Assembly (NCBI RefSeq): GCF_054482525.1
Contig: NZ_CM137006.1
Reading direction: 5' to 3' (one strand)
DNA: 64,000 bases
Positions 2 through 3,848 of the stretch are shown here, in pieces. The stretch's first letter is position 1, and each line of letters opens with the position of its first letter. Both the position numbers and the translations under genes were made by a program. The notes below the pieces were generated by a model. It saw nothing but the letters and a program-made list of their open reading frames with translations. It was not told the origin of the DNA and did no database searches.

Positions 2-724
2 GTGGGCACTGATATTTTTGTCGTTGGCGAGAACCGCAGCGGCGTGCGCAGCGCAGAACAGATGCTGGCAGATTATGCGCCGTTGAATAAAGTCGACAGC
101 GCCCGTCGCTGTGGCCTCTATTTTGGTCGTCTGGAAAAGCAGCCGGTATTTGATGCCGATAAATTCTGGGGCGAATATAACGTGGATGGCCTGACGGTCA
201 AAACGCTGCCGGGCGTGTTTAGCCGCGACGGTCTGGATGTCGGTAGCCAGTTACTGCTCTCGACGTTAACTCCGCACACGAAAGGTAAAGTGCTGGATGT
301 CGGCTGTGGCGCGGGCGTGCTTTCTGTTGCCTTTGCGCGCCATTCACCGAAAATTCGTCTCACTCTGTGCGATGTCTCTGCGCCAGCGGTAGAAGCCAGC
401 CGCGCAACACTTGCGGCCAACGGTGTTGAAGGTGAAGTCTTTGCCAGTAACGTCTTTTCCGAGGTGAAAGGTCGTTTTGATATGATCATCTCCAACCCGC
501 CGTTCCACGATGGGATGCAAACCAGCCTCGATGCGGCGCAAACGCTGATTCGCGGCGCGGTGCGTCATCTTAATAGCGGCGGCGAGCTGCGAATTGTAGC
601 GAACGCCTTCCTGCCTTATCCGGACGTGCTGGATGAGACATTTGGCTTCCATGAAGTTATCGCACAAACCGGGCGCTTCAAGGTGTATCGCGCCATTATG
701 ACCCGCCAGGCGAAGAAAGGTTGA
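2..724 (+). CDS. rsmC: 16S rRNA m2G1207 methyltransferase, C-terminal 240 aa (5' end outside window)
   Basis: ORF open from window edge; SAM-methyltransferase motifs ([17 protein letters not shown]); sits next to the leu tRNA cluster as in K-12. Confidence 0.85.
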
Positions 725-923: not shown

Positions 924-1010
924 GCGAAGGTGGCGGAATTGGTAGACGCGCTAGCTTCAGGTGTTAGTGTCCTTACGGACGTGGGGGTTCAAGTCCCCCC
1001 CCTCGCACCA
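924..1010 (+). tRNA. leuQ: tRNA-Leu (anticodon CAG), 87 nt with encoded CCA
   Basis: GCGAAGGTGGCGGAATTGGTAGACGCG...GGTTCAAGTCCCCCCCCTCGCACCA; long variable arm typical of tRNA-Leu; symbol assigned by order in operon from memory. Confidence 0.9.
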
Positions 1011-1038
1011 AAAACCACGTTGATATTGCTCGCACTGG

Positions 1039-1125
1039 GCGAAGGTGGCGGAATTGGTAGACGCGCTAGCTTCAGGTGTTAGTGTTCTTACGGACGTGGG
1101 GGTTCAAGTCCCCCCCCTCGCACCA
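1039..1125 (+). tRNA. leuP: tRNA-Leu (anticodon CAG), 87 nt, single-base variant (GTTCTT vs GTCCTT in variable arm)
   Basis: Second tandem copy, identical except one nucleotide. Confidence 0.9.
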
Positions 1126-1159
1126 AACGAGGCGATATCAAAAAAAGTAAGATGACTGT

Positions 1160-1246
1160 GCGAAGGTGGCGGAATTGGTAGACGCGCTAGCTTCAGGTGT
1201 TAGTGTCCTTACGGACGTGGGGGTTCAAGTCCCCCCCCTCGCACCA
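1160..1246 (+). tRNA. leuV: tRNA-Leu (anticodon CAG), 87 nt
   Basis: Third tandem copy, identical to first. Confidence 0.9.
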
Positions 1247-1284: not shown

Positions 1285-1521
1285 TCATCCCTGCTTCAAA
1301 TTCATTATCATCAGCATGATGCCAGCAATAAGCGCCAGGCACGATGGCAGCAAAACGTAATGCCGCAACTGTTTGTGATACAGCATCACCGGCGTCAATA
1401 CTAATCCCATCAGAATGATAATCCGCCATTGATCCGGCGATAAATCCGCATACATCAGCCCTGCAATCAGCAATCCCGGCAGCAACACTCCCCAGCCACT
1501 GCCCAGCGTACGTTGCAACAT
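1285..1521 (-). CDS. yjjZ: small hydrophobic membrane protein, 78 aa (internal Met of a 115-aa ORF)
   Basis: ORF 1285..1632 minus; 78-aa version from Met at 1521 matches remembered length of K-12 YjjZ; hydrophobic; Fur-box-like sequence just upstream. Confidence 0.55.
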   Translation of the reverse strand: MLQRTLGSGWGVLLPGLLIAGLMYADLSPDQWRIIILMGLVLTPVMLYHKQLRHYVLLPSCLALIAGIMLMIMNLKQG

Positions 1522-1539
1522 GGTTTCATCTCTTTCATT

Positions 1540-1560
1540 GATAATGATAACTAATATCAT
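1540..1560. promoter_or_regulatory. Fur box candidate (GATAATGATAAC...)
   Basis: tGATAATGATAACtAATATCAT resembles Fur consensus GATAATGATAATCATTATC; lies in divergent yjjZ/fhuF promoter region. Confidence 0.5.
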
Positions 1561-1628
1561 ATGATAATTTTTATCATTTGCAAGCCAGAGAAATCCCTTG
1601 CTATCGGGTAAACCTATCGCTAGGATTA

Positions 1629-1643
1629 GCAATCATTATCATT
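1629..1643. promoter_or_regulatory. Fur box candidate upstream of fhuF
   Basis: GCAATCATTATCATT, about 20 bp upstream of fhuF ATG; fhuF is a classical Fur-repressed gene. Confidence 0.5.
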
Positions 1644-1661
1644 TAGATTACTATCCCGATT

Positions 1662-2450
1662 ATGGCCTATCGTTCCGCACCGCTCTATGAAGATGTTATC
1701 TGGCGAACGCATCTCCAGCCGCAGGATGCTGGGCTTGCACAAGCCATACGGGCGACGATCGCCGAACATCGTGAACATTTGCTCGAGTTTATCCGCCTGG
1801 ATGAACCCGCTCCGCTTAACGCCATGACGCTGGCGCAATGGTCATCAACGAATGCGCTAAGTTCTCTACTCGCGGTCTATTCCGATCATATCTATCGCAA
1901 CCAACCAACGATGATCCGCGAGAACAAACCGCTGATCTCACTATGGGCGCAATGGTATATCGGCCTGATGGTGCCACCGTTAATGTTGGCGCTGCTGACG
2001 CAGGAAAAAGCATTAGATGTGTCGCCGGAACATTTCCACGTTAAGTTTCACGAAACCGGACGCGCCGCCTGTTTCTGGGTCGATGTGTGTGAAGATAAAA
2101 ACGCAACACTACATTCGCCGCAGCAGCGAATGGAAACGTTAATCAGTCAGGCGCTGGTTCCGGTAGTGCAGGCATTAGAAGCAACGGGAGAGATCAACGG
2201 CAAACTTATCTGGAGCAATACCGGTTATTTGATCAACTGGTATCTGACTGAGATGAAACAGCTGCTTGGCGAGGCGACGGTTGAATCGCTGCGCCATGCC
2301 CTCTTTTTTGAGAAAATGCTCACGAACGGTGAAGATAATCCACTCTGGCGTACCGTGGTACTGCGCGACGGCCTGCTGGTGCGCCGCACTTGCTGCCAGC
2401 GTTATCGCTTACCGGATGTGCAGCAATGTGGCGATTGTACGCTGAAATGA
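1662..2450 (+). CDS. fhuF: ferric-siderophore reductase, 2Fe-2S protein
   Basis: 262 aa; C-terminal CC-x10-C-x2-C motif (CCQRYRLPDVQQCGDC). Confidence 0.9.
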   Translation: MAYRSAPLYEDVIWRTHLQPQDAGLAQAIRATIAEHREHLLEFIRLDEPAPLNAMTLAQWSSTNALSSLLAVYSDHIYRNQPTMIRENKPLISLWAQWYIGLMVPPLMLALLTQEKALDVSPEHFHVKFHETGRAACFWVDVCEDKNATLHSPQQRMETLISQALVPVVQALEATGEINGKLIWSNTGYLINWYLTEMKQLLGEATVESLRHALFFEKMLTNGEDNPLWRTVVLRDGLLVRRTCCQRYRLPDVQQCGDCTLK

Positions 2451-3165: not shown

Positions 3166-3848
3166 TCTGCGGCATCTCCATAAACAGAAGGCAAGTTAAG
3201 TTCTCTTGCACCCTGCGCGCTATTTATCCATGCATACATTTCAGCGTTGCTGTGAATTGCCAGTCGACGCATCGCACTGTTTTTTTGGGCGCTGATAGTT
3301 TTATTACTTTTCTTAAGCAATGAAGCTATCTGGTTGATGCCCCATCCTTTACCTAATAGCCGCAGCACTTTGCGCTCTGAAAGAGTGAGAATGACGGAGC
3401 GATAGCTAAAATCATGAGTTTCAGTCATTGCCGGAGAGGTCAGCATGGCGCTGATACGCTCTGCGTGCGTATTGCCGGAACGTACGGTCTTGACCAGATT
3501 CTCAATGGGTTCAACATCAGACAATAACGTCGCCGTAGGGCACATGAGCAATTCTACTGCCTGGGAATACCAGGAGCGTGACACCATGAAAACCCAGTGA
3601 ATTTCCCGATATTGCGAGATTAAAGAATAATAATGTTCACAAACAGAACGTGGATCTTCACTTTCACCGGCTAAATCAGCAATGACTAATCCGGAACGAC
3701 GTAATTGTAATAAGGTAAGGTCCTCCGCAGAGGCGCTGGATATTATTTCATATTCAGGGAAGTGAGTCCTCATGACCTCTTTTAACCCTGCTTGCATAAC
3801 AGGTATTTTACTGATAACAATTCCATTTTTGCAGCATCCTGGCAACAT
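3123..3848 (-). CDS. yjjQ: LuxR-type transcriptional regulator
   Basis: 241 aa; LuxR HTH ([34 protein letters not shown]); upstream of and overlapping bglJ. Confidence 0.85.

Follow-up and report, generated by a model that had tools for sequence, protein, structure and literature searches.

Two sequences resembling Fur boxes lie in the spacer between the divergent genes yjjZ and fhuF of Escherichia coli. The locus raises the question of whether they form one operator shared by both genes or two operators and, in the latter case, which box serves which gene. An earlier note, made from the letters of this DNA, had described paired Fur-box-like sequences bracketing the spacer. Both are found where it placed them, GATAATGATAAC at 1540-1551 and GCAATCATTATCATT at 1629-1643. 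All positions are those of the window, that is, the whole 64-kb stretch of DNA that was analysed.

The yjjZ-fhuF locus

The window is oriented in reverse relative to K-12; its genes and the features of the spacer are listed in Table 1. The three tandem tRNA-Leu(CAG) genes, the leuQ, leuP and leuV genes of K-12, precede the end of yjjZ, the third of them ending 38 bp from the yjjZ stop codon. YjjZ matches the Pfam family PF07256 (E 6.6e-37), and FhuF contains the Pfam domains FhuF and FhuF_C. The spacer occupies 140 bp (1522-1661) between the yjjZ ATG at 1521 on the minus strand and the fhuF ATG at 1662. The region 1250-2500 is 100% identical to E. coli strain PCN033 and was found in 5424 of 5426 complete E. 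coli genomes; the same count was obtained for the spacer itself.

The alignment to K-12 MG1655 has no indels over 1250-1745, and the mapping was checked at both start codons. Published coordinates were converted by the formula: window position = 4607325 - NC_000913.3 coordinate = 4605348 - NC_000913.2 coordinate. The regions used below to train the Fur matrix were moved from K-12 v.2 to v.3 by offsets that we take to be +776, +1975 and +1977; these were checked only against the neighbouring annotated genes. Four of the 140 spacer positions (1523, 1552, 1590 and 1623) differ from K-12, and the Fur scores are not materially changed. The difference at 1623 falls within the putative -10 hexamer of fhuF, which reads TAGGAT in the window and TATGAT in K-12. 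Among the Escherichia and Citrobacter loci sampled, G is more common at this position, and the K-12 variant is nearer to the consensus.

Table 1. Genes, Fur boxes, published footprints and promoter elements of the yjjZ-fhuF locus (window coordinates)
Feature	Position	Strand	Source and remarks
rsmC	2-724	+	gene
three tandem tRNA-Leu(CAG) genes	924-1246	+	
yjjZ CDS	1285..1521	-	ORF; 78 aa, DUF1435 small membrane protein; RefSeq E. coli annotation
footprint fhuF1, high affinity	1533..1585		K-12 v.2 4603763-4603815; Chen et al. 2007, Table 3 (PMC2189734)
Fur box cluster 1 (box 1)	1540..1581		overlapping 19-mers 1540-1558, 1546-1564, 1557-1575, 1563-1581; 14-21.6 bits
yjjZ transcription start	1548	-	K-12 v.3 4,605,777; 5' UTR 27 nt; ROSE study (PMC10301672)
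yjjZ sigma-70 promoter	1556..1583	-	-35 TTGCAA (1583..1578), 16-nt spacer, -10 TATGAT (1561..1556); promoter scan
fhuF core promoter, putative	1598..1626	+	-35 TTGCTA (1598-1603), 17-nt spacer, -10 TAGGAT (1621-1626)
footprint fhuF2, low affinity	1615..1668		K-12 v.2 4603680-4603733; Chen et al. 2007, Table 3 (PMC2189734)
Fur box cluster 2 (box 2)	1622..1646		PWM: 1628-1646 (-) 10.2 bits, 1622-1640 (+) 7.9 bits
fhuF transcription starts	1631..1632	+	K-12 v.2 4603717/4603716; 5' UTR 31 nt; Chen et al. 2007 (PMC2189734)
fhuF CDS	1662..2450	+	ORF; 262 aa, ferric-siderophore reductase; RefSeq annotation
bglJ, yjjQ		-	genes

Candidate Fur boxes

The Fur PWM was trained on 19 other Fur regions of K-12 (Chen et al. 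2007, Tables 3 and 4), with fhuF left out. The training sites were picked by consensus-seeded EM, and thus the training scores are optimistic. Scanning the 64-kb window (about 128,000 strand-positions), a check that the earlier note had proposed, put box 1 at the top: the five best matches (21.6, 21.4, 16.1, 15.3 and 14.0 bits) all lie within 1540-1581, and no position outside 1481-1700 on either strand of the window scores 14 bits or more. In dinucleotide shuffles of the spacer the probability of a maximum of at least 21 bits was 0.0012. Box 1 is also the sole match in the 64 kb to the 19-bp Fur consensus GATAATGATAATCATTATC at three or fewer mismatches, with 0 expected (100 shuffles), and it holds a 7-1-7 element with one mismatch at 1562-1576. 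As a Fur-box sequence, box 1 is far beyond chance.

The yjjZ ATG is 19 bp away from the start of box 1. This start agrees with that given earlier; the end had been set too short, as the cluster runs to 1581. Overall, the box is a 46-bp near-palindrome (1538-1583, centre at 1560/1561). In this palindrome the -35-like hexamers, TTGATA and TTGCAA, mirror each other, and each strand has a TATGAT -10 hexamer, the two copies overlapping. Within it, a transcription start has been reported for the minus-strand (yjjZ) promoter only.

Box 2 is much weaker. It ends 18 bp short of the fhuF ATG and is the 14th-ranked PWM match in the 64-kb window, with eight equal or better matches elsewhere, three of them in AT-rich stretches; in shuffles of 1586-1661 its P value is 0.035. 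In inverted orientation it repeats the left part of box 1, with 15 of 17 positions matching (1625-1641 against 1539-1555). Judged by its sequence alone, box 2 would be marginal, if suggestive. We nevertheless accept it as real, because it is conserved across four genera and has been footprinted in published work.

Some other Fur-like signals were observed in the window. Weak PWM matches at 3620-3644 (12.2 and 9.0 bits) lie in the 5' part of the yjjQ coding sequence and are seen again, at an identical offset, in the Escherichia loci L002 and L010 (10.5-12.2 bits). Two further matches, 57087-57105 (12.6 bits) and 57295-57313 (11.6 bits), are about 200 bp apart, and between them, at 57232-57246, there is a 7-1-7 match with two mismatches. 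Apart from the yjjZ-fhuF spacer, no part of the window has a stronger Fur-like signal than 57087-57313.

Published footprints, transcription starts and expression

Two Fur clusters were predicted in this region by Chen et al. (2007, Nucleic Acids Res 35:6762, PMC2189734), and both were confirmed by DNase I footprinting. Following the indel-free mapping, each published footprint contains one box, fhuF1 box 1 and fhuF2 box 2. The comparison with the published fhuF footprint, also proposed in the earlier note, thus places protection at 1533-1585 and 1615-1668 and not elsewhere (PMC2189734). The 29 bases between the footprints (1586-1614) are unprotected. The strongest Fur site of that study, 4603779, corresponds to window position 1569, the centre of the 7-1-7 element, and a gel shift with a box 1 oligonucleotide was reported in the same paper (PMC2189734). 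The PWM scores of box 1 (14-21.6 bits) and box 2 (10.2 bits) agree with the published high and low affinities. Chen et al. (PMC2189734) assigned both sites, as clusters, to the fhuF promoter region.

Besides Fur binding at both sites, published experiments have shown where transcription of the two genes starts and that their expression depends on Fur and iron. The fhuF starts are taken second-hand from the legend to Figure 5 of Chen et al. 2007 (PMC2189734), the primary paper being Zheng et al. 2001. The yjjZ promoter with the hexamers TTGCAA and TATGAT gives no transcription in the wild type, is active when fur is deleted, and is strong in vitro (ROSE study, PMC10301672); the same hexamers were also given by Shimada et al. 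(PMC3946193). Both genes are members of the published nine-strain core Fur regulon (pan-regulon), and in a uropathogenic E. coli isolate yjjZ and fhuF were up 7.3-fold and 4.6-fold, respectively, among the upregulated iron-acquisition genes. In Salmonella, deletion of fur raised fhuF expression 8.5-fold (PMC3212961), and yjjZ is iron- and Fur-regulated in published work. The iron regulation of fhuF, with which the paired boxes had been held consistent, is therefore borne out by the footprints and by the Fur-dependent expression. The suggestion that yjjZ is co-regulated is likewise supported, and had been published.

Repression of fhuF by OxyR has also been published. The best match to the OxyR motif in the spacer, at 1603-1639, agrees at 13 of 20 specified positions of a four-element motif, and 12 window positions reach 13 or more. 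It overlaps the -35, -10 and +1 positions of fhuF and the left edge of box 2, in a block conserved across genera. This modest candidate is in keeping with that published repression.

Promoter geometry and the proposed mode of repression

The positions of the transcription starts allow the boxes to be placed relative to the promoters. The two starts are 83 bp apart and face outward. Box 1 occupies -33 to +8 relative to the yjjZ start at 1548 (footprint -37 to +15), so that the -35 and -10 hexamers and the +1 position are all covered. Box 2 occupies -9 to +15 relative to the fhuF start at 1631 (footprint -16 to +37) and covers the start and the putative -10 hexamer. The fhuF hexamers were assigned from the sequence relative to the published start 1631/1632, and the block that contains them is conserved in four genera. 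Counted from the same start, box 1 extends from -91 to -50; it is outside the fhuF core promoter, upstream of the putative -35 hexamer.

It is thus very probable that the spacer contains two back-to-back sigma-70 promoters, each with its own Fur operator, strong on yjjZ and weak on fhuF, both acting by promoter occlusion. When iron is plentiful, Fe2+-Fur dimers would fill the multi-site box 1 and occupy the -35, -10 and +1 positions of yjjZ; RNA polymerase would be excluded and yjjZ would be silent. Fur on the weaker box 2 would repress fhuF, as this box overlaps the start of the gene's transcript together with the -10 hexamer and the beginning of the transcribed region. When iron is scarce, Fur would leave both sites, and both yjjZ and fhuF would be transcribed. 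We infer that box 2 alone suffices for the repression of fhuF in E. coli, box 1 being dispensable for this gene.

We assign box 1 to the yjjZ promoter on the strength of the yjjZ start, which was mapped later (PMC10301672), and of the comparative data given below. Our initial guess had been the opposite one, with box 1 on the fhuF promoter, box 2 on the yjjZ promoter and crossed, overlapping transcripts; it is ruled out by the mapped starts at 1548 and 1631/1632. Hence it is the yjjZ promoter that carries the box known for long as 'the fhuF Fur box', and fhuF has a weak operator of its own. The Fur titration assay rests on the repression of fhuF by Fur, and the weakness of this operator might explain why fhuF::lacZ serves as its reporter. 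The boxes are paired in that one lies near each gene; they are not a shared pair, the strong one being in all likelihood the operator of yjjZ and the weak one that of fhuF.

Many database entries for YjjZ are 91, 92, 98 or 133 aa long (e.g. P0003, P0033). For the 91-aa form, the ATG is at 1560 on the minus strand, within the Fur box (ATCATATGAT), and yjjZ transcription starts 12 nt downstream of it, at 1548. Since this ATG precedes the transcription start, the N-terminal extensions in the longer database forms are probably due to mis-called starts; the 78-aa form fits the transcript.

Comparison across genera

We compared the loci encoding FhuF relatives and those encoding YjjZ homologues. The retention of the boxes was analysed in seven sequences of Escherichia, four of Citrobacter, one of Salmonella (arizonae) and, of the four Enterobacter loci returned, in the two that were scanned (L026 and L028).

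In Citrobacter (four loci), Salmonella enterica subsp. arizonae and Enterobacter, a gene encoding a 354-aa GGDEF-domain protein lies between yjjZ and fhuF, and the start codons of the latter are about 1.4 kb apart. Each box nonetheless stays with its own gene, and both are kept in all four genera examined (Escherichia, Citrobacter, Salmonella and Enterobacter). In the loci with the GGDEF gene, box 1 always lies 19 bp from the yjjZ ATG and scores 16.5-22.8 bits. Box 2 (10.2-13.4 bits) is likewise upstream of fhuF in all three genera, at 34-47 bp from the ATG in Citrobacter and Salmonella. Box 1 is unchanged in all 12 aligned sequences over the segment GATAATGATAA (1540-1550) and over most of 1553-1579. 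In box 2, the same holds for TCATTTAGATT (1638-1648) in the 12 sequences of Escherichia, Citrobacter and Salmonella, and the core ATCATTATC (1632-1640) is identical in 11 of the 12, the sole difference, at 1634, occurring in Salmonella arizonae.

Homology with the other genera stops on the yjjZ side, and begins again on the fhuF side, at about 1582-1586. At this point the Escherichia junction is clean, with both promoters intact. All other sampled genera, Enterobacter included, carry the GGDEF gene (L006-L009, L011, L026-L029), and therefore the separated state is most parsimoniously ancestral. A segment of about 1.3 kb with this diguanylate-cyclase gene was probably lost in Escherichia (coli, albertii, whittamii and cryptic clades). 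The tight pairing of the two boxes would then be a derived, Escherichia-specific arrangement.

Salmonella, in which the boxes are apart, still regulates both fhuF and yjjZ by Fur, and this supports independent operators; the expression data come from serovar Typhimurium and the sequence examined from subsp. arizonae.

One could imagine that this Escherichia-specific pairing of the operators through loss of the GGDEF segment has rewired the control of fhuF. We regard this as rather improbable. If it were so, the strong yjjZ operator might now aid the loading of Fur on the weak fhuF operator, or the mirrored promoter-like element in box 1, which faces the GGDEF gene elsewhere, might now read into fhuF. 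By either route, the iron response of fhuF in E. coli would differ from that in Salmonella and Enterobacter.

Alternative modes of regulation

An unlikely, though by no means negligible, alternative to independent operators is that in Escherichia box 1 also contributes to the repression of fhuF, either by cooperative nucleation onto box 2, about 74 bp away, or through another fhuF promoter further upstream. A plus-strand site within box 1 (TTGATA-16-TATGAT, 1538-1565, 10 of 12 positions) is indeed the spacer's best sigma-70-like match and mirrors the yjjZ promoter in the 46-bp palindrome, and Shimada et al. (PMC3946193) predicted a fhuF promoter with the same -35 hexamer, TTGATA-19-GATAAT. However, the only fhuF starts cited are 1631/1632 (PMC2189734), and none is reported for the plus-strand site in box 1. 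Moreover, the first two bases of TTGATA vary by species (TT, CT, TC, CC, GT), unlike a conserved -35 hexamer. At higher concentrations Fur is known to spread along DNA (secondary footprinting, PMC2189734); against a role of box 1 in fhuF control, the 29 unprotected bases of 1586-1614 part the two footprints. Chen et al. (PMC2189734) and earlier consensus searches took box 1 as 'the' fhuF Fur box; on the other hand, fhuF of Salmonella is Fur-regulated with box 1 at a distance of 1.4 kb (PMC3212961).

A single shared operator, with both boxes in one Fur-DNA complex repressing both promoters as at fepA-fes, is very improbable. The boxes are mutually inverted copies (15 of 17 positions) placed symmetrically in a short spacer. 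However, two discrete footprints with different affinities and independent titration were reported (PMC2189734), each box overlaps only one core promoter, the starts being 83 bp apart, and the boxes work in genomes where 1.4 kb parts them. We therefore rejected this possibility: one contiguous protected region over both core promoters would be expected, and there are two footprints with a 29-bp gap, each over one promoter only.

Finally, it is hardly credible that box 2 is a chance AT-rich resemblance without a role and that the regulation of fhuF comes wholly from box 1: the score of 10.2 bits and the eight equal or better matches in the window, three of them in AT-rich stretches, would allow it, but Fur protects box 2 in vitro (PMC2189734), the box overlaps the fhuF start, TCATTTAGATT is invariant, ATCATTATC has changed by one base in Salmonella arizonae only, the box is kept in Enterobacter, and no other Fur-like site lies near fhuF in the genera where fhuF stays Fur-regulated.

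Comparison with known systems

Two independent operators thus remain the preferred reading, and most of what it rests on is already known: publications and EcoCyc/RegulonDB cover both Fur sites with their affinities, the two starts and the dependence of yjjZ and fhuF on Fur. The Fur-box call made from sequence was accurate, and it re-discovers regulation footprinted in 2007. The sites are fhuF1 and fhuF2 of E. coli K-12 (Chen et al. 2007), the same two sites at the same locus, with no difference in kind.

The arrangement resembles that of the divergent enterobactin pairs fepA-fes, fepD-entS and fepB-entC, where iron-regulated genes also diverge from a short AT-rich spacer with Fur boxes and are repressed by promoter occlusion. 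However, fepA-fes has one footprint of about 48 bp (Table 3, PMC2189734), whereas yjjZ-fhuF has two discrete operators of differing affinity. Box 1 is similar to the multi-dimer Fur operators with overlapping GATAAT-type hexamers or 7-1-7 repeats (e.g. iucA, fecI, yoeA): like strong Fur clusters in general, it has four or five overlapping sites, offset by 6 or 11 bp, and its footprint covers about 50 bp. Compared with these operators, box 2 is a minimal operator of one to two sites.
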